This document shows positions 35 through 21,430 of a stretch of DNA of 32,000 bases, one piece after another. The notes below the pieces were generated by a model, which saw nothing but the letters and a program-made list of their open reading frames with translations, was not told where the DNA came from and searched no databases. The DNA comes from Candidatus Thorarchaeota archaeon (GTDB lineage: Archaea > Asgardarchaeota > Thorarchaeia > Thorarchaeales > Thorarchaeaceae), in the NCBI GenBank assembly GCA_008080745.1, contig SHMX01000003.1, positions 30,001 through 62,000 of the forward strand, written 5' to 3'. Both the position numbers and the translations under genes were made by a program. The stretch's first letter is position 1. Every line of letters starts with the position of its first letter.

Positions 35-397
35 GTGTCTATTATGGAAAAAGATAGCCATGTTGGAGCATTTCATTACATCGCACTGATTCTAGGAATC
101 CTTACTCTCACAATATATGCATGGTGGATTTTTTCTGTAGGTAGCTGGGTGCTTAATTTTATGGAAACCCTGTTTATTGCAGCTGGAATTTCCATGATCC
201 CTATCACACTCCTGATAGGCAAGTCAGATACTCGGTCTGGTCGAGTACTATTCACCATAATCTCTGCTGCTCTTGGAGGTGTTCACGGTTATCTGGTCTT
301 GGCTTTCTTTCCAACTACTGGTGCAATGATGTTTCTCCTTTTTGGTTTCGGACTTCTAATGACTGCAGCTTCTATAACATGGATACAAAAGGGATAA
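35..397 (+). CDS. Hypothetical integral membrane protein (about 4 TM helices)
   Basis: 120-aa ORF with four hydrophobic stretches and no recognisable motif; start could be GTG 35 or ATG 44. Confidence 0.65.
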   Translation: MSIMEKDSHVGAFHYIALILGILTLTIYAWWIFSVGSWVLNFMETLFIAAGISMIPITLLIGKSDTRSGRVLFTIISAALGGVHGYLVLAFFPTTGAMMFLLFGFGLLMTAASITWIQKG

Positions 398-407
398 GCT
401 AAAAGTC

Positions 408-1412
408 CTAGCTATCATCTTCTAATGGTGAGAACTGCACTATTGCCCAAGTGATATCGGTTGAAATAACTGGAAGACCATCAATCCCAATATCAAAGAT
501 CTCGCTTGAAACAGTTGGTTCTACCGACGAAACATCTTCAAACAGGATTTGAGTTTCAAGCAATGGTGAAGACATGGATAGTAATCGGTTCTTGAATCCG
601 AATTCCATATTGTGTTCTATGAGAACATCTGCATTGGCATCTCCATTATCTGGAAAGAAAAATGTAAGAAAGTAAGCTACACCACCAAGACATCTTACCA
701 ATTCATTGAGAAATTCTTCACTACTGGTTATATTGGTCAATCCCATATTGGTCGTAATGACCTCTACTGATTTTTCTTTGAAAGGCATCTTTCTAGCATC
801 AAATGCAATAAGGCTTACTTTCTCATAGATACCGAAATGCTCCAATCTATCCTTATTTCTCTGAAGAATACTTGGACTGATATCACTCAAGATGACAGGA
901 TTTTCCAATTCAGAGAATAATTCAGCGAATCCACCCATTCCAGATGCAATATCAATAATGACGCCTGTTTTATCAGAGAGTAATTTTTGTAGCTGTGTTT
1001 TCTTTTCTTGATATGCTTGAGTATAAGAACTAGTATATAGGTCCCTCACGGCTTCAGCTCTAATTTCTCTTGCAGTATCATAGTCTCCTCGCTCATCAAG
1101 AATCATTGAATGTAAGAGTTTGTCTGCGGGATTCAAATTATCCAAATCAGTTTGCATGAGTTTTCGTTCATATTCAGGATTGCTACGCAATGCCTTTGAT
1201 AGATTACTTTGCACAACTTTCCAAAAATCTTCATCATTTGATGCATCTAAAAGAAAAATAGCAATACCATTCTTTACAAAATAAGATTTATGACATGCGA
1301 TACAAGAAACCTCAGCATCAATAATCCGATGATCTGTTTCTTTTTGAATATCCCATGCTAAAGAATCATGACAGATAGGACAATAAAGCAAATTTTGAAT
1401 AGATTTTAGCAT
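408..1412 (-). CDS. Class I SAM-dependent methyltransferase with N-terminal Trm112-like zinc-finger domain
   Basis: N-terminal LYCPICH...VSCIACHKSYFVKNGIAIFL is Trm112-like; SAM motif I is IIDIASGMGG, followed by SDISPSIL and AFDARKMPF. Start moved to ATG 1412 (MLKSIQNLL); the 30-aa extension in the ORF track is AT-rich and looks intergenic. Confidence 0.85.
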   Translation of the reverse strand: MLKSIQNLLYCPICHDSLAWDIQKETDHRIIDAEVSCIACHKSYFVKNGIAIFLLDASNDEDFWKVVQSNLSKALRSNPEYERKLMQTDLDNLNPADKLLHSMILDERGDYDTAREIRAEAVRDLYTSSYTQAYQEKKTQLQKLLSDKTGVIIDIASGMGGFAELFSELENPVILSDISPSILQRNKDRLEHFGIYEKVSLIAFDARKMPFKEKSVEVITTNMGLTNITSSEEFLNELVRCLGGVAYFLTFFFPDNGDANADVLIEHNMEFGFKNRLLSMSSPLLETQILFEDVSSVEPTVSSEIFDIGIDGLPVISTDITWAIVQFSPLEDDS

Positions 1413-1558
1413 GAATATCAAAGATTGAAGATATTCGAAATCTAAAATAGATTTACAACTAAGCAAAATAAAGAAAATAGCCCATTCTATTTTAGAAAAC
1501 AATTCAGTAATTCACTCGTAAAGATTAAGAGGGCTCGTTAATAATTCTAATTTGAGAT

Positions 1559-1801
1559 TTGAGAATGAATGCCTCCAAACTAATGGCTATATTAACTGGA
1601 ATACTCGGATGTGTAATTCTAGCGATTAGCGGCTGGCTAATACTCTTTGGAATTCAATGGGCAATATGGAATGCACCATTATCAGGTCATCCTCCAACTG
1701 ATATTGCATGGTTAGTCAATTCTGCAGTACCGCTAGGTTTTTTTCTCTTAGGACTAGGTTTTATGATGATACTATGGAGTAAACCATTAAGTGTGCAATA
1801 A
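1559..1801 (+). CDS. Small 2-TM membrane protein
   Basis: 80-aa ORF with two hydrophobic helices; fills the gap between flanking genes. Confidence 0.55.
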   Translation: MRMNASKLMAILTGILGCVILAISGWLILFGIQWAIWNAPLSGHPPTDIAWLVNSAVPLGFFLLGLGFMMILWSKPLSVQ

Positions 1802-1929
1802 TCTCTGCAATCGGTTCTTATTTCATAAAAGAATGATATGATAGTGAAGAACCCAGATAGATAAAAAAGCAGAGGTGAATACTTTAAGATATTATTACCT
1901 CTAACAAAATTCCATCGAGAGAGTCATCT

Positions 1930-3771
1930 ATGAGTATGAGAGAAAAATTTCAGAAAGTCAGAAATGATAAGCTGTTCGATGAAATAAAAGAACATATGAT
2001 AATGGGCCAATTTAAAGACGCACTTGAGAAAATTGATCTTCTCGATTTACAGTACCATTCAGATGCAGAAAAGGCAAAACTAAGAATTAAAGCATGGGAG
2101 ATAATGTGCATCACCCGCCAGGGGAAATATCAGGAAGGTCTGCAACTTGCAGATGAGTTCCTCCAATCTTACAATGATGAAGAGCTATACAAAGAACCTA
2201 TTCTGGATATTATAATTGCAAAATCATACTCATTTAGTGCACTTGGTAAGATTGATGAAGGTTTAGAAATGTGTAGAAAGGCAGAAGAGATACTCAAGAA
2301 TCTCGACCTGACTACACGAGAGAATCGAGCTCGTCTGGCAAGTGTCTTGACTATTCAGGGATTGAATGCACTTCACCAAGGAGATCTCGACCTAGCAATA
2401 GAGATCTATTCACAAAGCTATCCAATATTGGATGAGCTGGGAAATAAAAAGAGCGCTGCTGCAGCACTGCATAATATTGGTAGCACATATAGAGTCATGG
2501 GATACCTTGACCGAGCTTTAGAATATGTCGAGATGTCTAGAGCAATATCTGAGGAAATAGGATATACTCCAAATCTGGCAGGTGCATACACAACAACCGG
2601 AATCATACTCTATCAAAAAGGACGCCTTAAAGAAGCTGCAGATAGTCTTGAAAAGAGTCTTGATATGTTCGGAGAGATTGGGCATAAGGTATACCTTGCG
2701 AGAGGATTATACTACGCAGTAATAATCGAGGTAGCTCAGAAAAATCTGGAACGTGCAGAAGAGTATCTTTTCCAAATGGCATCGATAAATGACGAGCTTG
2801 AGAGTCTACTCATCAGTCAACATTATCGAGTAGCTAAAGCTATCTGGCTTAAGGCAAAAGCAGATCCCGTATCACTCCAACAAGCACAAGAATTATTCGA
2901 TTGTGTTGTCGATGAAAAAATTACCTTCTTCGAAGTGACATTTCAATCGCTCCTTAGCCTTAGTGATCTTCTAATAGACCAAATGAAAAGATCCGAAAGT
3001 GAGAAAGATATAGCAATCATTAAGGAATATACTGAGATAGCACTTGAGTTAGCAACAAGTCAAGGTTCACACTGGCTTGAGGCGGAAACATATTGTTTAC
3101 AGGCACAGATTGCATTGGTTGAACTTGAGTATGAAGAAGCCAAGAAGCTTCTTACAAAAGCCCAATTGATTGCAGATGAAAGAGGTCTATATCAGCTTGC
3201 TAGACGAATCTCTAATGAATTCGATGAGCTACTTAGGAAGGAAGAGAGATGGACAGAGATAAGCAAAAAGGGTGCGACATTTTCTGAGAGAGTAGAGATA
3301 GCTCAGATAAATGAACGAGTAGAACGGATGGCAAAGATTCAGGAAGCTGTTCCTCTACAAGAATCTAAAGATCAGCCAATTCAATTCATGCTTCTCTCAG
3401 CACACGAAGGATATTGTATTGTTTCTAAAGAGTTTGAAACTACATTCAAAGTAGACGAGTCTCTTGTGAGTGGCTTTCTAAGTGCTATTACCAGTTTTAG
3501 CGACGAGGTTTTTTCGTTGCCTCTTGACAGAATCAAAGTTGGTGAGTTTATACTTCTGTTTAGAGCAATAGTACCATTCCTATTCTGCTATGTCTTCAAA
3601 GGAGAATCATATTCAGCGTTAAAAAAGGTTGAACAAATTATCGAATATATACAACAAGATGAAGACCTATGGAGTTCACTGGAAGACACAATAGATACTG
3701 GAAAACAGAATACTCTTGTAAATCAACAGATACAAAGAATGGTTACAGAAGTTTTTCAAATGACTGGTTAG
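1930..3771 (+). CDS. Tetratricopeptide-repeat protein with C-terminal longin/roadblock-like domain (Asgard type)
   Basis: TPR helices (AAALHNIGSTYRVMGYLDRALEYVE, AGAYTTTGIILYQKGRLKEAADSLE). The C-terminal domain has LVSGFLSAITSFSDEVF followed by beta strands, the pattern of longin-like domains common in Asgard proteins. Confidence 0.8.
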   Translation: MSMREKFQKVRNDKLFDEIKEHMIMGQFKDALEKIDLLDLQYHSDAEKAKLRIKAWEIMCITRQGKYQEGLQLADEFLQSYNDEELYKEPILDIIIAKSYSFSALGKIDEGLEMCRKAEEILKNLDLTTRENRARLASVLTIQGLNALHQGDLDLAIEIYSQSYPILDELGNKKSAAAALHNIGSTYRVMGYLDRALEYVEMSRAISEEIGYTPNLAGAYTTTGIILYQKGRLKEAADSLEKSLDMFGEIGHKVYLARGLYYAVIIEVAQKNLERAEEYLFQMASINDELESLLISQHYRVAKAIWLKAKADPVSLQQAQELFDCVVDEKITFFEVTFQSLLSLSDLLIDQMKRSESEKDIAIIKEYTEIALELATSQGSHWLEAETYCLQAQIALVELEYEEAKKLLTKAQLIADERGLYQLARRISNEFDELLRKEERWTEISKKGATFSERVEIAQINERVERMAKIQEAVPLQESKDQPIQFMLLSAHEGYCIVSKEFETTFKVDESLVSGFLSAITSFSDEVFSLPLDRIKVGEFILLFRAIVPFLFCYVFKGESYSALKKVEQIIEYIQQDEDLWSSLEDTIDTGKQNTLVNQQIQRMVTEVFQMTG

Positions 3772-3857
3772 CTACCAATAAGAGAGGATGCATTAAGAAT
3801 AACTTCAATTAGTAACTTTAAAACGAAAATTTTACAACTGAGAAATAGGTTATTTTC

Positions 3858-4142
3858 ATGCAAAACAAATGTACAAGATGTGGTCAAGAGATTGATGCGC
3901 GAAAAGCTAAGTTTATGCAAAAATACCAATCAAGCGAAGGACTTGTTTGTTTAAAGTGTATAAATGAAAGTATTAGGGAAACAGAAATTGAATACCCAAT
4001 ATGCACAAAATGTGCAGAACCCATAGATCCATCCCAATTGCAAATCTTTGCTATTAGTAAGACCAAGGAAACCATTCCAAAGTTATGTGAAGGGTGCCAG
4101 AGCAAAGACCATCCTAAGTTACCACCAAAACGTTTACACTGA
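3858..4142 (+). CDS. Small double zinc-finger protein
   Basis: Four CxxC pairs (CTRC, CLKC, CTKC, CEGC) in 94 aa. Confidence 0.7.
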   Translation: MQNKCTRCGQEIDARKAKFMQKYQSSEGLVCLKCINESIRETEIEYPICTKCAEPIDPSQLQIFAISKTKETIPKLCEGCQSKDHPKLPPKRLH

Positions 4143-4188
4143 CTCGGAATATAAAATTTCAAAGATGTGACAATTTAGTAATCTTTGA

Positions 4189-6006
4189 TTATTCCGCTCT
4201 CGGGAGCCAAATTATGAACTCGGTACCTTTTGTATAATCTCCTTCAACACGATTGTTAACATCAATTGTACCACCATATTTCTGTACCATATGTTTGCAT
4301 AAGTGAAGATCTACACCACCATATCGACGGGAAATATCAAACAGAGCTTCTTTTCGTTGATCGGGTATGCCAATACCATTATCTGAGATGCTAATGCGAT
4401 AACCATCATTGAACTCAAAGACTTGAATCCATACACGTTTGGATTCAGAAACGTTATGCTTGATAGCATTCTCAATCAGCATTATGAAGAGTTGTTCCAA
4501 TAGTGCATCTCCTACAATATTAGCTCGAGTATAATGTCCTTCTATTTGGATAGAAACTTCACCATATTTTGATTGGATATGATTGATTGTATTAGCGAGG
4601 GCAATATCCAATTGTCGTATAGCAATAGGATTAGATGTCAAAGATTCTGTTAGAGTCATTTTCGTAAGGAGGTCTCTACATTCTGCGATAGCATTCTCAG
4701 ACTCAATGATCAAGTTATCATGCTGTTCTCCTGTAGTCTCACGGGTTATGAGGTTCATGCAGGCAATTATGACTTGAAACTTGTTCATTATATCGTGCCC
4801 AATCAAATCGAGATAGAGAACTGCACGGTCCTTTGATTCCTCTAGACTTCTAACCATCTTATTGAGACTAATTGATAATGTCTTTAGTTCGGTAGTACTA
4901 TATTCAGTAATCTCGTGGTCAAGAACACCTTGAGAGATAATTTGCGCATCCTCTGCAATCTTATGAATTGGTTTTGTTAGTCTAGATGTCCCGAAATATG
5001 TGATAAGTGAAGTAAAGAAGAAAGTGACAATTCCCAGAAGTATATGATATCCAATTAGACTTGTTAGTTGATTGCTGATGATGGTGGTAGTATAGACCAA
5101 TTCGATTACAAAATCAACCGATTCGGTGGGATAATCGCCATTTGTCAGACTCAGAAATATGTATTTTGTAAGAGTATTCGAGGTTATGTTGGAAACGGTT
5201 CGGTCTTGTTCTGTGTCACGGACATCAAATACAATTTCCAATAGAGAGTTCGAAGGATGAAAACTTGTATCTCCTAGAAGATCTCCAAAAATGGAAAAGA
5301 TACGTATTGATTCTAGAAATGAATTGCCAGAAACAAATTCATCTGCTGCATGTAGATAGCTTAATTCACTCGTGAGTTCAGAAAATTCATCTATCACTAA
5401 GCCCAATTCAAACACGTATTGTCGGTCGGGACTTGGCATATATGCGTAAATTCTAACATCCCCTGTCTGAATTTCAGGAGAAACCCGATCCAGAGTAAAA
5501 TTACCCTCAAGTCGAATTTGGGTAAGTTGTTCATAAAAGGAACATGAGAAATCACTAAAATTTAGTCCCAAATCTGGTGCATAAGTTGTGGAAATAATAA
5601 TACCGTCACAATCAATAATATACAAATCGTATGTCTTATTCAATATCTCATAGACCTTTGTGAGATTCATATCTTCAACATTACGACCAACGTCCTCGTA
5701 TTCAGAAATGAAATATTGAAAACCATCAAGCATATCTGATTCGTAATTTTTTCCGATGGTGTTTAATCCAATGTCTACCAAATTGAAAGTAGTTTCAATA
5801 TCTTGCTCTATTTGATTCTGCATGAGCTCATGACTACGCTCAAGATTGACCTTTGCAGTATTGTAATCAGAATAGGATATGAAACTAATAAGTGGAATAA
5901 TCAAAAGCAGAATAGCTAAAGTCAATTGAATTTTAAATGACCGTTTTTTAAGGAAGTCAATCACATTTGACAATTTATCTGCCTCAAATGAAATATTCTT
6001 GTCCAT
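4189..6006 (-). CDS. Membrane sensor histidine kinase (TM - extracellular sensor - TM - HAMP - HisKA - HATPase)
   Basis: Two TM helices flank a ~290-aa loop. HAMP (LTKPIHKIAEDAQIISQG), H-box (LIGHDIMN), N-box (LIENAIKHN), G1 (DNGIGI), G2-like YGGVDL. Confidence 0.9.
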   Translation of the reverse strand: MDKNISFEADKLSNVIDFLKKRSFKIQLTLAILLLIIPLISFISYSDYNTAKVNLERSHELMQNQIEQDIETTFNLVDIGLNTIGKNYESDMLDGFQYFISEYEDVGRNVEDMNLTKVYEILNKTYDLYIIDCDGIIISTTYAPDLGLNFSDFSCSFYEQLTQIRLEGNFTLDRVSPEIQTGDVRIYAYMPSPDRQYVFELGLVIDEFSELTSELSYLHAADEFVSGNSFLESIRIFSIFGDLLGDTSFHPSNSLLEIVFDVRDTEQDRTVSNITSNTLTKYIFLSLTNGDYPTESVDFVIELVYTTTIISNQLTSLIGYHILLGIVTFFFTSLITYFGTSRLTKPIHKIAEDAQIISQGVLDHEITEYSTTELKTLSISLNKMVRSLEESKDRAVLYLDLIGHDIMNKFQVIIACMNLITRETTGEQHDNLIIESENAIAECRDLLTKMTLTESLTSNPIAIRQLDIALANTINHIQSKYGEVSIQIEGHYTRANIVGDALLEQLFIMLIENAIKHNVSESKRVWIQVFEFNDGYRISISDNGIGIPDQRKEALFDISRRYGGVDLHLCKHMVQKYGGTIDVNNRVEGDYTKGTEFIIWLPRAE

Positions 6007-6091
6007 CAGAATGATTATTATGAATTATAATACATAACTGATGTTTTATTATTTTAATATACTAGAGGAAGGAAGACAGCTATTAAAGACT

Positions 6092-6550
6092 TCAGTTTTC
6101 TAAGGTGGTTTGCGGGCTGTAATCTGATTCATCTACTTCAAGTGTGCCTAAAGAAGTACTCTCGTCCAACGAATGCATGACGGATAGTCCACCTGCTATA
6201 AAGAGTGCTGCTCCTGTGCCCCAAGAAGTTAGAAAGAGAGCGTCAGAAAATGTAGCAGAACCTTCAAGGATGGGCATAATTAAAGCAGTGATGAACATCA
6301 TTGTTACAATTACCACTGATACTGCCAACATGGTTGGTTTTATCCTACTTCTTTCAGGTTTCAGATAACCAACAAATGTAAAAATTAGAATTAATGGTGC
6401 AGGAAGCAACCAAGAAAGGAAAGACACTCTTGCTAATACGTATCCAGGATTTGCTAGTTCTAGATAGAGAAAGTTGAAAAAATACGCACTAAGCAATAAT
6501 ATGCCGAGCCAGAGAATGCAATATGGTTCACTGTCCTCACGTAGTTTCAT
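6092..6550 (-). CDS. Hypothetical 4-TM membrane protein with acidic C-terminal tail, probably co-transcribed with the FAD-NuoB gene
   Basis: Hydrophobic ORF starting 0-10 nt after the upstream stop (6560-6562); a GGTGA SD-like motif precedes ATG 6550. Confidence 0.7.
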   Translation of the reverse strand: MKLREDSEPYCILWLGILLLSAYFFNFLYLELANPGYVLARVSFLSWLLPAPLILIFTFVGYLKPERSRIKPTMLAVSVVIVTMMFITALIMPILEGSATFSDALFLTSWGTGAALFIAGGLSVMHSLDESTSLGTLEVDESDYSPQTTLEN

Positions 6551-6559
6551 TATCATCAC

Positions 6560-8500
6560 CTATGAAATAATCCCAAGAGCATCTTGGTTCTCATTCTTCA
6601 TCTGCCAGTGAGTGGTCCCAGCTCTGATCTTATTCTGGAGAATAAGATGAGCACGAATGAAATCTGATGGTTTTGGTGGACAACCGGGTAGATAGACATC
6701 CACAGGTACAACCTTATCCGGAGGAGTAACTAGAGAATATCCATCCCAGAACAAACCACCACTTGCAGCACATTGTCCGAAAGAGATAACGAATTTTGGT
6801 TCTGGCATCTGTTCGTAAATTCTTCTTAATCGGGGTGCCATTTTCTTAGTCAGACTTCCAGAAATCCAAAGTACATCAGTCTGACGTGGACCAAATAGAG
6901 GAAGCATTCCAAAGCGTTCCACATCCCAACGAGAAGCAACACCAGCTGCTCCATCAACCATACAACAACCAAGACCATATTGGATTGGCCATGGGCTATG
7001 GGCCCGACCCCAACGGAGAAGCCATTTAATAGGAGGTACATTTTGGAGCCATTTGAGAAGAATTGGTGCAATCCTACCAAAACCATTTCGAAGGAAATCA
7101 AAAGCTACCCACATGAAATATTTTCCAATGCGTAGGATAAATGGCAGCCAGTATGCGAAAATTTTTCCTGGATTTGAAATTTCCTTAGGATCATATTTCA
7201 GCTTCGCACTTCGAATCCGACTGAGTCTTTTCTTTCCAAAATACTCTGCGGCATAATTGGCAAACCATATTCCCGTTGAATGTGCATGTCCACCATGGCG
7301 TTGTGCAATTTTGAAAATGACAAAACTTTGAGACCATGATAACATATAGAACCGACGTCGCTCATCCTCAAGAAAATAGCCCATCATGGTAACTCCTGAT
7401 TTGGACGTGACATAGCCATCCACACCAGCCTTAGCCGATGCCTGTTCGAATTGAAAATCATCAAGAATAGCATGGAGATTTTCTAGAGGTGCAAAAGCCT
7501 GACCAACAACTAAAGTAGGTCCTGCTTTCTTTATCTTCATTGGATAGAAACGTTCTTCCCATTCGTGTTCAGCTACATGACGGTCATATATGGTACCTTT
7601 GTATTCCTCAACAACATTACGAACTATTCTAAGCCCAGCCTCTCGATCTTCATTACTTCCGTCGAATGCAAATAGCACTACGCAATGATGAACCGGATAT
7701 GGGAAAGGTGTATCTTTATCCCAGATTTTCTTCTTGAGATCAACATACTTGCTCTCTTTGAATTTAATAGTATGAGGTAGTGGTGCTTCTTCTATTATCT
7801 TCTCTATTGCCATGTTCATAAGATAATTTTCTGGGAAACTTGCAACGATTGGGTCGATGGGTGTAAGTTTCTTAGCTTTGATTCTTATCTTTGTGATGAT
7901 TCCAAGAATACCCTCTGTATCACAGAACAACTCACGTTCTTTGGTCTCGATGATTCTACCATTTGGGAGTACCACTTCAAACTCAAGAACACTGTCATTA
8001 ACTAATCCGTATTTCAACGAGCCAATACCATCTCCACCCTGAGCAACCCACCCACCAACAGTTGCTGAAAGACCTGATGAAGGGTAGCAACGAAGGTCCA
8101 AACCATGACGGTTAAGATGATGCTGAAGATGCGCCCAAGATATTCCTGGTTCGGTAATCACCCATTCTTCTTCCTCGTTTATCTCAAGAACACGATTCAT
8201 TTCTCGCATATCAACAATGATTCCGCCCTTACGAGGAATAGCTCCACCATAGCCAGATGTCCCAGCTCCACGGGGAACAAGGGGAACCTCCTCTTCGTTA
8301 GCAAATTTGTAAAGAGCCTTTACCTCTTCTGTAGTAACAGGCCTAACAAGAGCGTCAGGGTTGTTGTTCATCAGCCAACCAACCTGTTTAGGTAGAGACC
8401 CCACATCCTGGGAATGAACTATCAATTCGTGTTTAGCAGTGACCAATCGATGGTTGAATATCGCCTTGAGTTTCTCAAGCTGCTTTTCCTTCAATCCCAT
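6560..8500 (-). CDS. FAD-linked oxidoreductase (VAO/PCMH, GlcD-like fold) fused to a C-terminal NADH-quinone oxidoreductase subunit B (NuoB/Nqo6) domain
   Basis: FAD-binding motif PDALVRP...LVPRGAGTSGYGG and family C-terminal motif KYDPKEISNPGKI. Then RWGRAHSPWP...GLGCCM...PRQTDVL...KMAP...YEQMPEPK...GQCAASGG...VPVDVYLPGCPP, the NuoB signature. One uninterrupted 646-aa frame. Confidence 0.92.
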   Translation of the reverse strand: MGLKEKQLEKLKAIFNHRLVTAKHELIVHSQDVGSLPKQVGWLMNNNPDALVRPVTTEEVKALYKFANEEEVPLVPRGAGTSGYGGAIPRKGGIIVDMREMNRVLEINEEEEWVITEPGISWAHLQHHLNRHGLDLRCYPSSGLSATVGGWVAQGGDGIGSLKYGLVNDSVLEFEVVLPNGRIIETKERELFCDTEGILGIITKIRIKAKKLTPIDPIVASFPENYLMNMAIEKIIEEAPLPHTIKFKESKYVDLKKKIWDKDTPFPYPVHHCVVLFAFDGSNEDREAGLRIVRNVVEEYKGTIYDRHVAEHEWEERFYPMKIKKAGPTLVVGQAFAPLENLHAILDDFQFEQASAKAGVDGYVTSKSGVTMMGYFLEDERRRFYMLSWSQSFVIFKIAQRHGGHAHSTGIWFANYAAEYFGKKRLSRIRSAKLKYDPKEISNPGKIFAYWLPFILRIGKYFMWVAFDFLRNGFGRIAPILLKWLQNVPPIKWLLRWGRAHSPWPIQYGLGCCMVDGAAGVASRWDVERFGMLPLFGPRQTDVLWISGSLTKKMAPRLRRIYEQMPEPKFVISFGQCAASGGLFWDGYSLVTPPDKVVPVDVYLPGCPPKPSDFIRAHLILQNKIRAGTTHWQMKNENQDALGIIS

Positions 8501-8672
8501 TGCTAGACCTCTAGAAGATTTGGTTAGGAAACAACAGACTAATTCCGTACATAAAAAGTTAGCGAGTGATACAAAACGAACATGATAGTTATTTCCTCTT
8601 TCGAATACGTTAAAGATATTAGATACAATAGAAAAAAGAAAGATTATCTCCGCATTGTTAAAATGAATAGGA
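8501..8672. promoter_or_regulatory. Divergent promoter region shared by the FAD-NuoB gene and the CCG Fe-S gene
   Basis: 172-bp AT-rich gap between head-to-head genes, with TATA-like tracts (e.g. TTAAAGATA near 8610). Start sites cannot be determined. Confidence 0.4.
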
Positions 8673-9905
8673 GTGAAACGAATGGAATTTCCATCTCTAA
8701 AAGAACGTGGTCTAGATATTCACGCATTCACATGTGCCCAATGTAGCTTCTGCCAAGTTGGGCATGGAGCATGTCCCACCTACAAGGTGAAACGTGTAGA
8801 TAGCTATTCAGGAAAAGGAAAGATGCTGATAACTAGAGCTCTAGCTCAAAAAAGAATTAGTAAGGAAGAGGGTCTCGAAGGATTACGTGATGGAATATTT
8901 GGATGCACACTCTGTGGTGGATGTGAAGAAGTTTGCCAAGTAGATATTCCATTCATTCAAATATACCAGTTGATGCGATCAGACTTCAAGGATATGGGGA
9001 TGTGGCCCGAAGGTCTTGGTGATGCGAAAGCTATGCTCATGAAATCAAGAAATATTCAAGGCCAACCACAGATGGATCGAATTGAGGGATGGTCTTATTG
9101 GCATCCAGAGGAAGATTACCTACTTGATCGTGAAGGTGTAAAAAGTAAGACGGCAATTTTTTTGGGTTGTGCCTCATCCTTCAAAGCGGTACCAATTCAG
9201 GCTTCAATTGCAACAGCCATGATAATGGAGAAGATTGATGAAGAATTCACCATGCTTGGAGAAGAGGAATGGTGTTGTGGGGCCCCCCTCATAATGACAG
9301 GGGATTTCGAAGGAGCTAAAGAGTTTGCCCTTCATAATATTCGGAAATACAAAGAATTGGGAGTTGAGAGAATCGTCACTAATTGCCCCGGATGTTATAA
9401 GATGTGGGCTCATGAATACCATGAGTTTCTAGATATAGATCATGAGTTCGAAATAATATATGGTGCAGATTTCTTCATGCGACTGATTGACGAGGGAAAG
9501 ATGAACAATATCAGTAGCGATTACGAGGCCACCGTAACTTTTCATGATGGGTGCGATGCTGGACGAAATGCAGGATTCTATGAAGAACCTAGAAAAGTAC
9601 TTGAAAATCTCCCAGGGGTCACGTTTGAAGAGTTACCCCATAATAAAGCAAATTGTTATTGTTGCGGTTCGGGTGGAGTTCTGAGAGCTTTTGACAACGA
9701 ATTCGCACTTCAGATTAATGAGTTAAAAGTGGAAGATATTGAACAGACAAATACCGATATCGTAGTTTCCATGTGCCCATCATGTGTTGACTTTATGCAT
9801 GGTCAGCTACCTGTAGCCGGTTCCGAAAAGGCCTCGATGGATTTGGCTGTAATCATAGCAAAATCTCTTGGTCTTGAATGGGAGGGATTGGACGAAGTAT
9901 ATTAG
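8673..9905 (+). CDS. Fe-S oxidoreductase, GlpC/GlcF/HdrD-like (2x[4Fe-4S] domain plus two CCG domains)
   Basis: CAQCSFC...CP and CTLCGGCEEVC ferredoxin-type motifs; CCG domains EEWCCG...CPGC and HDGC...CYCCG...CPSC. Start GTG 8673 or ATG 8682. Confidence 0.9.
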   Translation: MKRMEFPSLKERGLDIHAFTCAQCSFCQVGHGACPTYKVKRVDSYSGKGKMLITRALAQKRISKEEGLEGLRDGIFGCTLCGGCEEVCQVDIPFIQIYQLMRSDFKDMGMWPEGLGDAKAMLMKSRNIQGQPQMDRIEGWSYWHPEEDYLLDREGVKSKTAIFLGCASSFKAVPIQASIATAMIMEKIDEEFTMLGEEEWCCGAPLIMTGDFEGAKEFALHNIRKYKELGVERIVTNCPGCYKMWAHEYHEFLDIDHEFEIIYGADFFMRLIDEGKMNNISSDYEATVTFHDGCDAGRNAGFYEEPRKVLENLPGVTFEELPHNKANCYCCGSGGVLRAFDNEFALQINELKVEDIEQTNTDIVVSMCPSCVDFMHGQLPVAGSEKASMDLAVIIAKSLGLEWEGLDEVY

Positions 9906-9906
9906 T

Positions 9907-11001
9907 TCAATCCATGAATAATTTAATGCTAAATAGTGGTCCAATGAAAATAGTCAGAAGAAGCGCAATCTCCCAGGGTAGCATAAGGCCCAGCATAAGA
10001 TAAGCAATACATAGTAATATGCCAGTAATCATGTGATTTTGAATGGTGCCTACATTAGCAGAAACAAGTTTTGGTATGGTATCAAAATTTGTAAGAGTCA
10101 CTATTGAGCATTTGATAGCAAGTGGAATCGTAATCAATGCGAGAAGAGTATGGAGATGTACATACCCTAGGAGCATTCCAATTATCAGAAAGATATAGGT
10201 AGCAAACATGATTAGACTGTATCCAATCGAGGCTTTTTTTCTGCCAAGTCTAACAACTAGAGTCTTCTTTCCAGCATCACGGTCAGCATCATGATCGGGA
10301 AATTCGTTGATGTAGAGAACCCCCATGATTAGAAAGGCGATGGGTAATGAAGCGATGATGGGTTCTATTAGAGCTTGGAGGAGAAGGAATGGAATTGATA
10401 GGAGGGGTTCAAGGAGGATACTTTGAACAGAATAAGGATATTGAACATAGTATGCACCGATTACCATTAACGTACCAAAATTCAGAGCAATAAAAAACTC
10501 ACCGAATCCGCGTGTCACGAGCTTGAAAGGAGGAGCGGTGTAGAAGAATCCAGAACCAACTCCAATGACTCCAAGCAGTATTATGAAAATACCCAATTGT
10601 AAGAACAGATAGATTCCAATCAGGGCTCCGATTACAAAAAAGACTAAAGAGCCAATTAATACCTCACGCGCTGAAAGAAACCCTCTTTGAATCATTCTAC
10701 TACCCCCTGTAAAGGGGCGTATGAATTCTTTGTTAATATCGTCTGATCCAGTCAGGTCTTCGCTATGATCAAAATAATCATTGGAAACATTAGCTCCTAT
10801 ATGAAGACAAATACCTGCAATTAATGTTAGGAGAAAATAGTCCAATCGAAACACCGAATGCAATCCCCAGGCAATAGCAGACCCTAGTAAAATTGGAATA
10901 GTAGATGCTGTAAGAAATGGAACTCTTAGCTCTATTAACCAAGCTCGGAATTTACCAGGATTCATTTTATCCTGAACTGGAATCGATTCGTCTTCGGTCA
11001 T
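9907..11001 (-). CDS. menA: 1,4-dihydroxy-2-naphthoate polyprenyltransferase (MenA, UbiA superfamily)
   Basis: NVSNDYFD, FYTAPPFKL..RGFGE and NEFPDHDADRDAGKKTLVVRLG motifs; multiple TM helices. Start reassigned to ATG 11001 (or 11010), because the longer ORF overlaps the divergent gene. Confidence 0.85.
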   Translation of the reverse strand: MTEDESIPVQDKMNPGKFRAWLIELRVPFLTASTIPILLGSAIAWGLHSVFRLDYFLLTLIAGICLHIGANVSNDYFDHSEDLTGSDDINKEFIRPFTGGSRMIQRGFLSAREVLIGSLVFFVIGALIGIYLFLQLGIFIILLGVIGVGSGFFYTAPPFKLVTRGFGEFFIALNFGTLMVIGAYYVQYPYSVQSILLEPLLSIPFLLLQALIEPIIASLPIAFLIMGVLYINEFPDHDADRDAGKKTLVVRLGRKKASIGYSLIMFATYIFLIIGMLLGYVHLHTLLALITIPLAIKCSIVTLTNFDTIPKLVSANVGTIQNHMITGILLCIAYLMLGLMLPWEIALLLTIFIGPLFSIKLFMD

Positions 11002-11120
11002 AAGAAACATGCATCCAAATCCAATCCAATAGAAAAGATTTGCCCCAGAACGAATTTGGTCCAGAATCGCAAGTGCTAATAAGTTAATTTTTCTACAAGC
11101 ACTATCACGGAGGAGCTCTC

Positions 11121-12191
11121 TTGGAGGAAAAACCCAAAGACTTGATGAAAGGTATACCAATAACTGATGGTGAAAAACTGATCAGGGATAACCAAGAAGA
11201 GATTATACTAAAGGAGTCCTTCAAGAAACTCTATAGACATCCAGCATTAGTCGAAAGAGTTACTAGAATTGAAAAGAGCATTCAGGATTTTATCAGAAAT
11301 AATGATGGTCAACCACAAATTCTCTATGATGCGGCCAACCACTTGATTCAAGCAGGAGGTAAGAGAACGAGGTCGCTTCTCTCTTTGCTCGCCTGTGAAT
11401 CAGTGGGTGGCGATACGGAAAAAGCCCTACCTCTTACAATAGCAGCTGAATTATTGCAGACAGCTTCATTGATTCATGACGATATCATTGATGCGGGGAC
11501 AACTCGAAGAGGGGTCGAAACAGTCCACCAAAAATATGGCCATCATATAGCAATCTTAGCAGGAGACCTCCTAATTGCAAAGTCAATAGAAATGATTGGT
11601 AAACATGGCTCAACCGAGCTTCTACAGCACATTGGAAATGGCGGTGTCAGGATGTGTGAAGGAGAGGCAATCGATCTTGCCCTAAGTACAGATAAGCCAG
11701 ATGTATTCTCAAAAGATCAATATTTCAAAATGATTGAACTAAAAACCGTCGCATTTCTTAGTGAATCAGCAAGGCTAGGAGCCATGATGGGAGAGGGAAC
11801 AGAAGATCATGTGGAGGTTCTATCCGAGTTTGGAGAACATTTGGGATATGCATTCCAGATTCAAGATGATATGCTTGATATGAGAACAACCCATGAAGAG
11901 AGCGGCAAGGTTCCTCTTGCCGATTTAAAAAGTCGAAGATGTAATTTCCTCTTGGTCCATGCGTTAGAGGTTTCACACCAGAGCCATATAGACACCATCA
12001 ATCAAGCGATAAATGAAGGTAAATTCTTTGATGCCGCAGAATATATTTTAGAAACTGGTGCAGAACAGGTAGCAATGGATTTAGCTGAAGGTTATGTGAA
12101 AAAGGCAAAAGAAACTCTATTACAAAGTAACCTAAGAGGCATAGACTTGCTCAATGAATTTGCAGACTCTGTAATTCACCGAAACCGTTGA
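11121..12191 (+). CDS. All-trans polyprenyl diphosphate synthase, probably medium/long-chain
   Basis: GGKRTR, FARM TASLIHDDIID..RRG, GEAID, KT, SARM FQIQDDMLD. TTG start preceded by GGAGG. Confidence 0.9.
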   Translation: MEEKPKDLMKGIPITDGEKLIRDNQEEIILKESFKKLYRHPALVERVTRIEKSIQDFIRNNDGQPQILYDAANHLIQAGGKRTRSLLSLLACESVGGDTEKALPLTIAAELLQTASLIHDDIIDAGTTRRGVETVHQKYGHHIAILAGDLLIAKSIEMIGKHGSTELLQHIGNGGVRMCEGEAIDLALSTDKPDVFSKDQYFKMIELKTVAFLSESARLGAMMGEGTEDHVEVLSEFGEHLGYAFQIQDDMLDMRTTHEESGKVPLADLKSRRCNFLLVHALEVSHQSHIDTINQAINEGKFFDAAEYILETGAEQVAMDLAEGYVKKAKETLLQSNLRGIDLLNEFADSVIHRNR

Positions 12192-12199
12192 TTTTGAAC

Positions 12200-13393
12200 C
12201 TAATTAAGAATCCTCGTTAAAGGAATTAGAATTTTTGACCCAAGCTTAACAGCAAAAGGCAATCTACATCTAATCAATGATTCAAGCAGATATGGACCAG
12301 CAAGGCTCATACAGATATGTGTTACAATATCATTAGACAGTACTGAATCTGCGATATTCCTAACAGCAACAGCTGAGCTAAGTGTTTGTCCAATCTCTGA
12401 GGTCCACCTTAGGGCATAATCTGATAGCGGAGTGGATTTCGAAAAGTGATCTAGTATTGTTTCTGCTGCTATCTCTCCACCAATAATAGCCGTTGGAATT
12501 CCCCCACCATTTGACGCCATAACATGACTTGCCGCATCACCCACTAACAGAACATTGTTACTAAAGGTGCGGCCAACGGGACCTCCAATAGGTATTAGCG
12601 CAGAAACTCTTTGTTCAATTTCTCCACCTCTCATAAGAGGAGATATCAGAGGATTGTGTTTCATGAGATGCTGCAAAAGTACTCGCAAAGGAGTATTGAA
12701 CTTGTTGAAGTGTTGTCTTAGACCGAGTCCAAAATTTACTCTCCCATCTCCTTTAGGGATAATCCACGCATATCCACCAGGCGCTATTTGCTCACCAAAA
12801 TACATCTCGGTAACATCAGGATTACAATGAGTGTTCTTTACCACGAATTGAATAGAGTGACTAACAGCAGAAGAATCTAGGATGTTACCAATGGAACGGG
12901 ATATCATCGAATTGGGACCGTCTGCACCTACTACAACCCGCGCTGAAAGTGTTCGAGTGCTGTTTCCTTTTCTGATTTTCAGTTTGTTCGAAGAAGACCT
13001 TTTTGCAACACTAGAATCCAGATATAATTCAGCACCAGAATCAATGGCTTCGTCTACCAGATGTTTGTCATACAATTTGCGATCAATAATGTTTGCTTTG
13101 AATCTGAATCGAGTTCTATTACCAAAAGGAGAAACCAGATGTGTCCAATAAGTCTGGTTTGTTACAAATCGTGAAGGAATGCAAGCAATTCTCTTAGCTC
13201 TTGATGAATAAGGAAATAGATCCGCACATTCTGTAGATGTTGGAAAATATTCACCACATTGGATTGGAACCCCGATTGTCTTTCTTCTCTCTATAAGTGC
13301 TACATGTAAACCATTCTCAGCTAACATGTGAGCTACGGTACTTCCTGCAGGACCTGCACCGACAACAGCAACGTCGTAATCAGTGTCTCGCAT
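12200..13393 (-). CDS. Geranylgeranyl reductase family flavoprotein (GGR/MenJ-like)
   Basis: VVGAGPAGS FAD motif, QCGE, PGGYAWIIPK, LVGDAA..V..SNGGGI. Confidence 0.9.
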   Translation of the reverse strand: MRDTDYDVAVVGAGPAGSTVAHMLAENGLHVALIERRKTIGVPIQCGEYFPTSTECADLFPYSSRAKRIACIPSRFVTNQTYWTHLVSPFGNRTRFRFKANIIDRKLYDKHLVDEAIDSGAELYLDSSVAKRSSSNKLKIRKGNSTRTLSARVVVGADGPNSMISRSIGNILDSSAVSHSIQFVVKNTHCNPDVTEMYFGEQIAPGGYAWIIPKGDGRVNFGLGLRQHFNKFNTPLRVLLQHLMKHNPLISPLMRGGEIEQRVSALIPIGGPVGRTFSNNVLLVGDAASHVMASNGGGIPTAIIGGEIAAETILDHFSKSTPLSDYALRWTSEIGQTLSSAVAVRNIADSVLSNDIVTHICMSLAGPYLLESLIRCRLPFAVKLGSKILIPLTRILN

Positions 13394-18400: not shown

Positions 18401-21400
18401 CTATCCATAATAGTATCCAGAACTACCAGTATTACCTCTAGCTCTGCAGATTTGTGCTATCACTATTATAATCACAACAAATGAGCCAATAGTAATAATG
18501 ATAGATATTGTATCAAAAGGGTTCCCTGGATTGGTAGTAGTTGTTGTTGTGTCGTTAGTAGTAGTTGAGGTCGTGTCAGCGATAACATAAACCATTACAG
18601 TATCAGATATTGCATTTCCTCCTTCATCTACAACAACAATGGTGTAGTTATACACCCCTATGTCCAGACCATTCAGAGAAATTGCAATTCCTATTTGATC
18701 TTGGTTATCTGGCTCTCCAAATTCACTTGATACTAGTACTGTGTCGTCCAGATAGACGACATAAGATGCGGGATTTGCTTCCGTTACGGTCCATGTGATA
18801 GATTCACCCAAGGTCCCAACTATAAATTCTATATCGGAAGGTTGGGATATTTCAGGGTTGATGGTATCCACAATGGTAACAATAGTACTAGAATTACCTG
18901 TATTTCCGCTAGTATCACGAAAGATCAGAGTATAATTATAGACCCCCAATGATAAATCATCCATTGGTAGCGTAATATCGTTTCCTGACCAAGATATCAA
19001 CTCTGAAATTGTACCATTGATATATATCGAATAACTATCAGGATACAAATCCGATGCTTGCCAGGTTAATTCATTACCAGAAGATCCCAACTCAATACTC
19101 ATCGAACTAATGCTTGTAACCTCAGGTCCAGTGGTGTCGAGAACATGAACCTCAATGCTATGACTTGTGAACCTTGAGAAGGAATCATACACAACTATCT
19201 GGTACTCATACGAACCCAGTTGAAGACCGTCCACAGAGAATACTAATTCAGAACCATCCCAAGATCCACTTGTTTCCAAGTTATCATTAATGAATAGTTC
19301 ATAATTACTTGGATTATCTTCAAGAAAAGTCCAAGAAATCACATTTCCGATTGTACCTGCTTCTATAGTATCGTTTTCAAATGATACAAGTACGGGAGGA
19401 TTCATGTCAAAATTGGTAGATTCCAATTCGCCCCATTCATTATGTAGCGGTTCGCCATTAGGGTTCCAGTTTCTTATGTAGAGATGGTCTATATACCATA
19501 TCTCACCTGAGATCGAACCTTCGGTCAGACAAGGTTGTAGATCGATATCGGGAACCAGAGTGGATGTACTATGTACCTGACTATTATCTTGATACCATGT
19601 TGCAGTATCGTTCTTACGAAAGAGGGTATACGAGTGTTGATCAGTGATGGATGATGGAAAATAGGCGTATTCACCATCGAAAGATCCAGAAACTCCGGTT
19701 TCGAAATAGAAGTAGTTTGCAGAATTAGAACCATAGGAATCGATCTTTGATACGTTTTCGGGGTAGCCAGTTCTCAATTCTACAAGATGAGTGTTTTGAG
19801 TGGACAGACCGTTGGCATAACCGCGAACTGTATATGCTGTATTATAGGAGATATTTACTTTACCATCTATACTTCCTCGTGTTCCATCTGTGGATATCAA
19901 TTCTAGGTAGCCATTTGAAGTACTGATGTCCCCACTGGTCATATTCCATTTGTTCAGGTCAAGGTCCGCATTGAAATCGTCAAAGAACAGGAAGGTGGCT
20001 TCGCCATCACTGATACTCTCAGCTGTGGGATTCCCATAGTAGAGATAGATGCTCTGGTCAACATCCAGCGTATCATTCATCTCCACCCAGACCGTAGCGT
20101 AATCACCTGAAGTGGATTCCTCAATCCAGTAATCAAGAAGCGTTATTCCATCATCATCTGTGAATCGGATATCAGCAAAGTCACTCTTGCAGAGTTCGTC
20201 AAGATAGACAGTTGACCCAGAATCCGTACCCGATCCATACTGTAGGTCGAATGCAATCTGATAGTTGGTTCCAGAGCCAACCGCTCCACTGATGTTGTGG
20301 GCCTTTCTGTACTGCCAACTGGTCAACCATGGGCTCTCCACTTCACCACTAGAGCTCACAGCAGGTTCATTATAGATATACTTTCGAACGTAGAAGTCGT
20401 CCAGCATGAACTCGTCACCCAGTCCATTTTTCCCCCAGCCATAGACCCGGAAGCAGCTGAACCCACTTATTGGGTCCTCTCGTCGGTTCTCTCCTGGATA
20501 GGTGGTCCCGTCAAGGGTGAGATTGGTCTTTCCAGCTGAACTGGCCTTGTACTCGAGATCATACCAGGTATCTGGAAGGGCACTGATTCCATCCTGAAAG
20601 TCATGCAATACCCCAGCAGTGTCACGATATGCAAAGTCGTACTGTATTTCCGTAAAAGCGGACACTGAGAAGGCAGGGTCCCAGGTATGTCTGTCTACGA
20701 TACTACTGATGAACTGATAGGCCCGGATCTCCCAGTAGAACTTGAAATGTACCGCAATGTTGGTATGTTCTTCAAAGTAGGTCCCGATAACCTGGGAACC
20801 CGTTCCAGTGGGATCTTCTTGAAGATGACCAACCATACCAGAACGACCACCAGGAGCTGCTGCAAGCTCCCAGGTGTCACCAGCCTCTGTTTCGTTTACC
20901 TCCCACTTGGACAGGTCGGCCTCAAAGTCGTCAAAGGCGATGAAGGTGGCTGTACCATTGCTGATAGACTCAGCAGCTGTGTTGCCATAGTAGAGATAGA
21001 TGGTCTGGTCAACATCAAGGTTATCAGCTATCTCTACCCAGACTATTGCGTTGTTTCCAATAGTCATCTCCTCCATCCAGTAGTTCAAGAGGGTGACTCC
21101 ATCATCGTCTGTAAAGCGGATGTCGCTAAAATCACTATTGCATTGACTATCGAGATAGATATCCCAGCAGATATCAGATCCGCTTCCAAAATGGATCGTG
21201 AATCGAACTTGATAATTATTACCTGCTCCCATACTACCTTTAATGGTTACAGATTTACGACATTGCCAATCATATAACCAATTAGATTCTGCAGAGAGAG
21301 ATGAATCTTTCTGCATATATCTCGATACGGAATCAAAGTCTTCAGAAATTTCAATCTGCGGCGTATAGAAAGCACTTAAGACAAAAAGCACAATCACTAT

Positions 21401-21430
21401 CACTATGGGTATTATTTTCTTTGCCCTCAT
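18401..21430 (-). CDS. Membrane-anchored surface protein: signal/TM - two DUF2341-like (plus LamG-like) modules - three Ig-like repeats - Thr-rich linker - TM anchor
   Basis: N-terminal hydrophobic leader; repeated W..RK...I.G..G.G.NYQ...DF.DIRFTDDDG.TLL.YW.E...A.VWVE...L....IYLYYGN..A; three D..[GN]P....ITW...[ND]P..Y Ig-like units; TTTTTT then a TM helix. Confidence 0.9.
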   Translation of the reverse strand: MRAKKIIPIVIVIVLFVLSAFYTPQIEISEDFDSVSRYMQKDSSLSAESNWLYDWQCRKSVTIKGSMGAGNNYQVRFTIHFGSGSDICWDIYLDSQCNSDFSDIRFTDDDGVTLLNYWMEEMTIGNNAIVWVEIADNLDVDQTIYLYYGNTAAESISNGTATFIAFDDFEADLSKWEVNETEAGDTWELAAAPGGRSGMVGHLQEDPTGTGSQVIGTYFEEHTNIAVHFKFYWEIRAYQFISSIVDRHTWDPAFSVSAFTEIQYDFAYRDTAGVLHDFQDGISALPDTWYDLEYKASSAGKTNLTLDGTTYPGENRREDPISGFSCFRVYGWGKNGLGDEFMLDDFYVRKYIYNEPAVSSSGEVESPWLTSWQYRKAHNISGAVGSGTNYQIAFDLQYGSGTDSGSTVYLDELCKSDFADIRFTDDDGITLLDYWIEESTSGDYATVWVEMNDTLDVDQSIYLYYGNPTAESISDGEATFLFFDDFNADLDLNKWNMTSGDISTSNGYLELISTDGTRGSIDGKVNISYNTAYTVRGYANGLSTQNTHLVELRTGYPENVSKIDSYGSNSANYFYFETGVSGSFDGEYAYFPSSITDQHSYTLFRKNDTATWYQDNSQVHSTSTLVPDIDLQPCLTEGSISGEIWYIDHLYIRNWNPNGEPLHNEWGELESTNFDMNPPVLVSFENDTIEAGTIGNVISWTFLEDNPSNYELFINDNLETSGSWDGSELVFSVDGLQLGSYEYQIVVYDSFSRFTSHSIEVHVLDTTGPEVTSISSMSIELGSSGNELTWQASDLYPDSYSIYINGTISELISWSGNDITLPMDDLSLGVYNYTLIFRDTSGNTGNSSTIVTIVDTINPEISQPSDIEFIVGTLGESITWTVTEANPASYVVYLDDTVLVSSEFGEPDNQDQIGIAISLNGLDIGVYNYTIVVVDEGGNAISDTVMVYVIADTTSTTTNDTTTTTTNPGNPFDTISIIITIGSFVVIIIVIAQICRARGNTGSSGYYYG
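19991..21050. repeat. Intragenic duplication of the DUF2341-like module (offset 951 bp = 317 codons)
   Basis: 19991-20099 aligns ungapped with 20942-21050, including ccatagtagagatagatg[c/g]tctggtcaacatc (31 of 32 nt identical). Confidence 0.85.

Follow-up and report, generated by a model that had tools for sequence, protein, structure and literature searches.

The fusion gene and its neighbourhood

The window analysed here is a stretch of 32,000 nucleotides at positions 30001–62000 of contig SHMX01000003.1 (contig C3 of genome G000) in the 98% complete Candidatus Thorarchaeota assembly GCA_008080745.1. At the center of the locus lies the fusion gene P0002 (6560..8500, minus strand; 646 aa, stop codon TAG at 6560-6562), which encodes a flavoprotein joined to NuoB, the complex I subunit holding cluster N2. 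It is flanked by a divergent gene for the iron-sulfur protein P0003 (8682..9905, alternative start 8673, plus strand) and by a gene for a small membrane protein, TM4 (6092..6550, minus strand). All three ORFs were confirmed. The initial annotation had proposed these three genes as a self-contained membrane dehydrogenase with a terminal quinone site at N2. The evidence given below favors, with a probability of about 0.62, a different reading, in which the module serves as the redox head to a complex I-like ion pump. The operon of this pump shares the strand of the fusion, and its end lies 124 bp ahead of the window. The comparison covered 86 genomes of the class, 70 of them belonging to g1–g12, 14 to g13, g15, g16 and g17, and two to g14. 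The start sites and the conservation of residues in P0003, TM4 and the NuoB domain were called from alignments of orthologues.

According to Pfam and NCBIfam matches, the fusion consists of a flavoprotein domain (residues 1–450; 7151..8500), a linker (residues 451–500; 7001..7150) and a NuoB domain (residues 501–646; 6563..7000), all on the minus strand. The NuoB domain matched PF01058 (Oxidored_q6, residues 523–617, 9.9e-24) with 83.9 bits at a cut-off of 27, and the protein exceeded the curated NuoB cut-offs, with 172.5 bits versus 142.7 for TIGR01957 and 180.2 versus 116 for NF005012. The complex I NuoB is distinguished from the small subunit of hydrogenases by adjacent N-terminal cysteines as opposed to CxxC (PMC7684303). 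The motif GLGCCM of P0002 has such a tandem of the complex I type, giving four N2 ligands, and these four cysteines (C512, C513, C577 and C607) were invariant across the orthologue alignment. The identity of the domain was 42–44% to the free NuoB of a sister-family genome (G001, see below) and 35–37% to the hydrogenase small subunit of its own genome.

The flavoprotein domain has the fold of the vanillyl-alcohol oxidase (VAO)/D-lactate dehydrogenase type, as judged from an AlphaFold2 (AF2) model with a predicted local distance difference test (pLDDT) score of about 90 and from a Foldseek search, in which the best match was the mouse LDHD (8jds; TM-score 0.84–0.85, 22% identity, E-value 6e-32). 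Its Pfam matches were PF01565, a flavin adenine dinucleotide (FAD)-binding domain (FAD_binding_4, residues 48–186, 1.6e-40, 138.5 bits), and PF02913 (FAD-oxidase_C, residues 231–447, 1.6e-09, 38.3 bits). The GlcD-type label of the initial annotation therefore holds for the fold, with its LDHD match and both Pfam domains, but not for the catalytic motifs and the equivalog score. The metal-binding motifs of hydroxyacid dehydrogenases, HxGDGNxH and EHG, are absent from P0002, the respective positions reading VTSKSGVTMMGY and HSTGIW, and the GlcD equivalog TIGR00387 gave 144.7 bits versus a cut-off of 567.9. The flavoprotein carries the motif EWxERFYPMRxK, common to its unfused and its CCG-fused relatives; the flavoproteins with this motif are a distinct subfamily, always located beside or fused to CCG proteins.

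The linker is made of three aromatic/basic amphipathic helices (residues 451–472, 474–485 and 491–501) with low pLDDT in the AF2 model. A transmembrane hairpin was considered for this part and rejected, as the maximal Kyte-Doolittle hydropathy was 1.2 and no window exceeded 1.6. The first linker helix appears to be ancestral to the flavoprotein, a counterpart (H449-472) being present in the model of a fused Firmicutes relative. The unfused 499-aa orthologues from g14 can be aligned with P0002 through residue 494-495.

The complex I-like operon without nuoB

A genome-wide search for NuoD gave a second copy directly ahead of the window, and the adjoining operon (C3:18501-29876) to which it belongs consists of 11 genes in the order NuoA-J-K-C-D-H-I-N-L-M-N. 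Neither nuoB nor NuoEFG was found in it, so that no input module is encoded there. A PF01058 search of the whole genome resulted in five genes, and only the fusion had the complex I tandem cysteines; the other four are CxxC-type [NiFe]-hydrogenase small subunits. Three PF01058 genes are of the CxGC type, each located beside a NiFe large-subunit gene. One hydrogenase cluster, on contig C11 (L014, G000:C11:1-16000; 2303-6436, minus strand), combines a NuoA-like protein, a small subunit, NuoC, a large subunit, NuoH and a probable NuoI. Its large subunit keeps the NiFe motifs RICGICSATH and DPCFSC and its small subunit has CNGC, and the cluster is identified by these motifs as a group-4 membrane-bound [NiFe] hydrogenase.

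The NuoI of the operon has two [4Fe-4S] motifs. The NuoD keeps the GPQHVSAHG loop and has no NiFe cysteine pairs, with only the equivalent of MbsL C85 being kept; its best PDB match was MbsL (6u8y_L) of the sulfane reductase MBS. The quinone ligands of NuoD were judged by His38/Tyr87 in T. thermophilus numbering (PMC7684303), and the protein has RLCM instead of RxDY, whereby a Met replaces the quinone Tyr. The operon encodes four antiporter-like subunits instead of three (510, 731, 505 and 508 aa; L013 4501-11281, G000:C3:18501-25281), the NuoL being long with its 731 aa.

Based on homology and gene content, the C-terminal domain of P0002 can firmly be assigned as the predicted NuoB subunit (cluster N2) of this nuoB-less operon. 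Since it is the only NuoB available to the operon, N2 would be located inside the pump beside NuoD and NuoI, and P0002 is predicted to take the NuoB position in the NuoD/NuoH/NuoI assembly. Moreover, since the fused domain is the NuoB of the pump, the flavoprotein would be tethered to the Q-module by the amphipathic linker of ~50 residues. The claim of a self-contained dehydrogenase with N2 as its own quinone site was abandoned for the same reason.

Conservation, gene order and parental states

The fusion, either full-length or truncated by contig ends, is present in 60 of the 70 g1–g12 genomes with 72–90% identity and in none of the 16 genomes outside. The orthologous NuoD (≥71% identity) was found in 61/70 of the g1–g12 genomes, in 0/14 from g13, g15, g16 and g17 and in 0/2 from g14. 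In five g1–g12 genomes, one of which is a single-contig assembly, the fusion, NuoD and P0003 are jointly missing. Wherever the fusion and nuoD share a contig, they are on the same strand (45/45), and in 41 of these 45 genomes nuoD starts 2.9–3.75 kb past the fusion end, the fusion being the first gene of the operon. The gene order, including that of the complete genome CP070761.1, is the divergent CCG gene (P0003), then fusion-TM4-x120-A-J-K-C-D-H-I-N-L-M-N, with x120, a second small membrane gene, on the opposite strand. The proposal that the three genes are a conserved unit was borne out by synteny, as the arrangement recurs in 12 genera. The distance of 6.7 kb between the fusion and the operon in the present genome results from an insertion specific to genus g1, also present in genome G026.

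The fusion is not a chance product, because 646 aa remain free of stops in ~45 protein clusters and 50 full-length genomic copies, and because the three-gene layout persists across the 12 genera. The same 50 stop-free copies exclude an artefact of gene calling or assembly. In genome G024 the fusion (G024:C5:93253-95186) and nuoD (98657-99782) each consist of two overlapping pieces in different frames; as both breaks fall within 6 kb, indels of the assembly are a likelier cause than a natural splitting of the fusion. In public records the protein is named either 'NADH-quinone oxidoreductase subunit NuoB' or 'FAD-binding oxidoreductase', and either name conceals its fused nature.

The unfused forms are found in related lineages. 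In the sister-family genome G001 the operon reads J-K-B-C-D-H-I-N-L-M-N, K and C being separated by a free NuoB of 152 aa. This NuoB scored 157 bits with the fused domain and 106 bits with the hydrogenase subunit; orthologues of the flavoprotein and of P0003 are both missing from this genome. Both g14 genomes encode an unfused 499-aa flavoprotein (56–58% identity) beside the CCG gene and a prenyl-carrier cassette (see below), without the Nuo operon and without TM4. By gene content, three states can thus be recognized: apparently, a pump with a free NuoB, a free flavoprotein/CCG enzyme, and both joined in g1–g12. The birth of the new module can be reconstructed because both parents, the free-NuoB lineage and the free flavoprotein/CCG lineage, are preserved. 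The closest free NuoB in public data has 62% identity to the fused domain and lies beside NuoA on a short metagenome contig (L054, JGI 3300035643). On this contig (384-1369), the free NuoB comes after nuoA and is divergent from a nuoJ fragment, with an unrelated gene next to it, and this arrangement may represent an intermediate with nuoB already gone from the K–C position.

No flavoprotein-NuoB fusion elsewhere was found in a length-restricted database search, which gave only NuoB-NuoC and NuoA-NuoB fusions, inteins and mis-joined plant gene models. In an exhaustive search the fusion clade had a single representative, and no other flavoprotein-sized NuoB fusion was among the best 150. Neither a flavoprotein-NuoB fusion nor a Thorarchaeal Nuo operon lacking nuoB was described in the literature searched. 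By this literature, the flavoprotein with its iron-sulfur partner would be a previously undescribed redox head on a complex I-like pump.

The iron-sulfur protein P0003 and its tie to the flavoprotein

P0003 contains a 2x[4Fe-4S] ferredoxin-like domain (Fer4_8, 39.9 bits) followed by two CCG domains (PF02754, 112.4 bits in two stretches). Eight conserved cysteines are of the ferredoxin type (C18, C21, C24, C31, C75, C78, C81 and C85) and ten belong to the CCG domains (C163, C198, C199, C235, C238, C291, C327, C328, C365 and C368), and all 18 are invariant or nearly so among the orthologues. The best NCBIfam match was TfrB of thiol:fumarate reductase, but the protein remained below all curated equivalog cut-offs, with 156 versus 385 for TfrB, 98 versus 278 for GlpC and 55 versus 333 for GlcF, as well as below those for HdrB and DsrK.

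The start at ATG 8682 is favored by the orthologue alignment and by a GGAG site. The head-to-head spacing of 172 bp to the fusion, as originally described, was correct when counted from GTG 8673, and it is 181 bp from the favored ATG. In an alignment of 21 intergenic regions, two conserved blocks were found in the divergent region (8501..8681). The first (8550-8566) reads CTCGCTA.(C/G)TTTTTATG on the minus strand, ~50 nt before the fusion ATG, and the second (8612-8624) reads AAA..TATT, ~60 nt before the P0003 ATG. We infer from their sequence that these blocks may be back-to-back archaeal core promoters (TATA box/B recognition element, BRE).

Among the 86 genomes, the single-copy orthologue of P0003 is found exactly where the flavoprotein orthologue is, which amounts to 57/70 in g1–g12, 0/14 in g13, g15, g16 and g17, and 2/2 in g14. 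Of 48 pairs located on the same contig, 34 are adjacent and divergent and the remaining 14 are ≤10 kb apart, while in g14 the two genes are co-directional. The nearest non-Thorarchaeal homologues of the flavoprotein are Firmicutes proteins of ~900 aa, in which the FAD, iron-sulfur and CCG parts form one polypeptide (36–39% identity over the FAD part). The C-terminal half of one of them, P0054, has 29% identity to P0003 (E-value 6e-50), and the CCG half of these proteins has the same best NCBIfam match, TfrB. One fused Firmicutes protein was modeled as a compact two-module unit with a predicted TM-score (pTM) of 0.82. Such single-polypeptide homologues agree with the pairing of the FAD and CCG parts proposed in the initial annotation. 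Overall, a partnership between P0003 and the flavoprotein is supported by co-occurrence, adjacency and the natural FAD-FeS-CCG fusions. By analogy with these fusions, P0003 likely binds the flavoprotein domain, the compact fusion model being homology support only.

The above observations also bear on an alternative, according to which the flavoprotein domain is a non-catalytic remnant, kept as an assembly or regulatory appendage of NuoB, with the CCG gene as a mere neighbor. The missing catalytic motifs of the nearest characterized enzymes speak for it. However, the FAD-binding domain still scores 138 bits, the flavoprotein is 72–90% identical across 12 genera and has its own subfamily motif, P0003 has kept each of its 18 cluster cysteines, and the CCG and flavoprotein orthologues co-occur one to one, which makes such a remnant most improbable.

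Flavoprotein+CCG gene pairs are numerous in Thorarchaeia, with ~10 per genome. In other genera, several further paralogous pairs with a flavoprotein of ~573 aa (L015 1-9808, L052 14657-19999 and L058 1-7099) are located within 10–25 kb of the fusion, some together with amine-oxidase-like and PNPOx-like genes. The CCG orthologue of G026 has one TGA. Selenocysteine was ruled out in this case, as the TGA is the codon just upstream of the start of an intact 407-aa open reading frame (ORF).

Small membrane proteins TM4 and x120

As originally noted, the TM4 gene abuts the fusion stop, with its start 1–10 nt from the TAG; the orthologues favor ATG 6550, which gives a protein of 152 aa (152–155 aa depending on the start). 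In 28/28 assessable relatives TM4 follows the fusion directly, usually overlapping its stop. Out of the four transmembrane (TM) helices initially described, three were clear from the hydropathy, and the fourth is only likely, being a Gly/Ala-rich stretch conserved in the alignment. The termini carry the conserved motifs LREDxDxYC and SPGIxDVSxLHYGP. TM4 had no Pfam or NCBIfam match, an Atlas feature search yielded only clusters without a name, scoring no better than chance, and the TM-score of structure matches was <0.5. The second small protein, x120 (35..397, plus strand; 120 aa), likewise matched no Pfam or NCBIfam family. It is conserved at 49–58 bits across the genera and always located beside nuoA, lying in the relatives on the opposite strand between TM4 and nuoA.

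TM4 is absent from the g14 loci, which have only the FAD and CCG genes. In G007, a 22-kb insertion parts the fusion from the Nuo operon and TM4 stays with x120-nuoA, whereas in genus g1 TM4 stays with the fusion, so that two independent rearrangements cut on opposite sides of it. Because TM4 is absent in g14 and kept with the Nuo operon in G007, it is regarded as a component of the joint pump system and not as the anchor of a free dehydrogenase, the role it had been given initially. A dihaem cytochrome b-type anchor requires four His ligands; TM4 has a single His and is therefore not a dihaem cytochrome b. TM4 and x120 probably serve the pump either as small membrane subunits particular to this lineage or as factors in its assembly. 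Co-folding of the full-length P0002 with TM4 from separate alignments gave an interaction score (ipSAE) of 0.00 in two runs, which weighs neither way.

On this basis an autonomous enzyme can be evaluated, that is, a three-subunit membrane dehydrogenase independent of the Nuo operon, with electrons passing from FAD through iron-sulfur clusters to the CCG site and/or N2 and further to quinone, and with the 4-TM protein as its anchor. The three genes are contiguous here and 6.7 kb away from the operon, and the FAD/CCG pairs stand alone in the unfused lineage g14. However, only genus g1 shows the 6.7-kb separation, a NuoB other than the fused one is missing from the operon, and N2 of all solved relatives lies enclosed by NuoB and NuoD, with NuoI feeding it. 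Moreover, TM4 is missing where FAD/CCG stand alone, follows the Nuo operon in G007, and cannot, with one His, be an anchor of the dihaem type. Such an enzyme is, therefore, very unlikely.

Three genes were recognized in the genus-specific insertion between x120 and TM4 (window 408-6006). The first (408-1502) codes for a UbiE/MenG-like methyltransferase, the N-terminus of which is Trm112-like, the second (1930-3771) for a TPR protein and the third (4189-6006) for a HAMP histidine kinase; the first two recur at this position in G026. Further along the window (18401-21430, minus strand), a 1009-aa ORF holds its only G+C spike (0.495 at 20001-21000 compared to ~0.40 elsewhere).

Carrier biosynthesis and electron flow

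On the other side of P0003, a prenyl-carrier cassette (9907..13393) recognized by family matches comprises a MenA-like UbiA (9907-11160, minus strand), a polyprenyl diphosphate synthase (11121-12191, plus strand) and a gene of the geranylgeranyl-reductase (GGR) family (12200-13393, minus strand). The cassette adjoins the CCG gene also in G011, G007, G037 and the unfused g14. A lipid-soluble redox carrier outside the known menaquinone head-group pathways is plausible. No haem-copper or bd oxidase was found in the genome. An NrfD-family membrane gene (G000:C14:10665-11510) and SdhA/FrdA-like flavoprotein genes (G000:C3:300479-300859 and G000:C2:212821-213186) are present.

Among the relatives of complex I, it is above all the input module that varies, examples being NuoEFG, FpoF, the formate dehydrogenase in FHL and ferredoxin sites. 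Within the reading of the module as a redox head, the flavoprotein and P0003 might be the electron-input module that is otherwise missing from the 'headless' complex, a tentative assignment with slightly less than an even chance. A substrate would reduce the FAD of the flavoprotein domain, and the electrons would reach the NuoI clusters by way of P0003 with its two [4Fe-4S] clusters, and from there N2. They would end at a non-canonical acceptor pocket in NuoD/NuoH, and this flow would drive ion translocation by the four antiporter-like subunits.

Several points weigh against this interpretation. The binding of P0003 and of TM4 to any subunit is putative, and so is the oxidation of a substrate, the flavoprotein being without the catalytic His/His/Glu motifs of D-lactate/glycolate dehydrogenases. 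By our estimate, a flavoprotein donor of mid potential would scarcely provide enough energy for four antiporter-like subunits, except with an acceptor of high potential, and ferredoxin at NuoI would be energetically a better fit. In the complex I structures solved, the NuoB N-terminus lies close to the surface of the membrane. Since this position, the linker and the CCG family all suggest the membrane surface, contact via a lipid-soluble carrier is favored over a direct wire to NuoI. Furthermore, the quinone Tyr of NuoD is replaced by the Met of RLCM, and MqnA/D, MqnC, MenD and MenB were not found in the genome.

In an alternative, the module is an exit rather than an entry. Ferredoxin at NuoI would drive the pump, which would reduce a prenylated lipid carrier, and the tethered CCG/flavoprotein unit, sitting on the membrane at the heel of the complex, would re-oxidize the carrier, passing electrons from the CCG site through the iron-sulfur clusters to FAD and a soluble acceptor. 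The fusion would hold both enzymes on one small local carrier pool, and in a variant the system could run in reverse, the ion gradient lifting substrate electrons to ferredoxin. This is consistent with the linkage of the MenA-like/polyprenyl synthase/GGR cassette to FAD/CCG even in the pump-less unfused lineage, with the TfrB match of P0003, with the amphipathic linker and with the absence of hydroxyacid-oxidation motifs. For CCG proteins like GlpC, GlcF and HdrD, the site of action is that of a carrier or a disulfide, and the large potential span called for by four antiporter-like subunits would, as estimated here, be given by ferredoxin. On the other hand, flavoproteins of the VAO/GlcD fold are normally dehydrogenases, the NrfD-family and SdhA/FrdA-like genes offer other possible carrier-dependent enzymes that would make an exit module unneeded, and no known quinone head-group pathway was found in the genome. 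Overall, a carrier loop of this kind is possible but rather improbable; the remaining probability is shared by branched schemes and a non-catalytic appendage. Branched electron flow and disulfide reduction at the CCG sites, both raised in the initial annotation, are conceivable.

Returning to the redox head, an extended form of it would be a covalently coupled machine with three redox ports, namely ferredoxin at NuoI, a non-canonical prenylated carrier or a sulfur compound in the NuoD pocket that has lost the Tyr, and, at FAD/CCG, a substrate or a disulfide. We consider it unlikely. If true, it would be a branched or confurcating complex I in which a mid-potential substrate is linked with ferredoxin and with the ion gradient, complex I parts taking on the task of Rnf or Ldh-Etf.

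To our knowledge, complex I evolution has proceeded with different input modules bolted onto a conserved NuoBCDI-membrane core, and all described modules are separate subunits. Here, a flavoprotein is joined to one of the core subunits themselves, and this is so throughout a major clade of the Asgard archaea, the prokaryotes most closely related to eukaryotes. Reports of 'headless' Nuo complexes in Asgard genomes are widespread, and a dependence on ferredoxin is usually assumed for them; the flavoprotein/P0003 unit is a concrete candidate for their electron donor or partner.

Comparison with known systems

P0003 resembles HdrD, TfrB and GlpC in its domain order and in all cysteine motifs. It differs from them in its first cluster motif, CxxCxxCx6C, the spacing of which is specific to the Thorarchaeal clade, and in contrast to HdrD, it has no cytochrome b (HdrE-like) partner.

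As dehydrogenases with FAD and iron-sulfur/CCG parts, GlcD/GlcF, E. coli YdiJ, the Shewanella Dld-II type and the Asgard Dld-HdrD pairs (PMC9723677) were taken for comparison. Common to them and the present system is a flavoprotein of the D-lactate dehydrogenase (D-LDH) fold with an adjacent or fused 2x[4Fe-4S]/two-CCG partner. In comparison with these enzymes, HxGDGNxH and EHG are replaced here, the scores are far under the cut-offs of the GlcD, GlcF, GlpC and YdiJ equivalogs, and the C-terminus of the flavoprotein runs into NuoB instead of ending or entering an iron-sulfur/CCG part.

The closest analogues of the pump are the 'headless' 11-subunit relatives of complex I with exchangeable input modules: Fpo/FpoF of Methanosarcina, the cyanobacterial NDH-1 with ferredoxin, E. 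coli FHL, and MBH/MBS of Pyrococcus. Shared with these is the core of A, J, K, C, D, H, I and antiporter-like subunits without NuoEFG (PMC7684303, PMC8165549), as well as the four NuoB cysteines for the proximal cluster, here of the tandem type, and the two [4Fe-4S] motifs of NuoI. The differences concern NuoD, which is without both the NiFe cysteine pairs and the quinone Tyr but keeps the MbsL C85 equivalent, and the membrane part with its four antiporter-like subunits and two extra small membrane genes. The Tyr to Met replacement in the ligand pair of NuoD also sets the system apart from the quinone-reducing complex I proper. Finally, as opposed to these headless relatives, nuoB is gone from its position between K and C, and NuoB is present not as a free subunit but as the C-terminal domain of a 646-aa flavoprotein.

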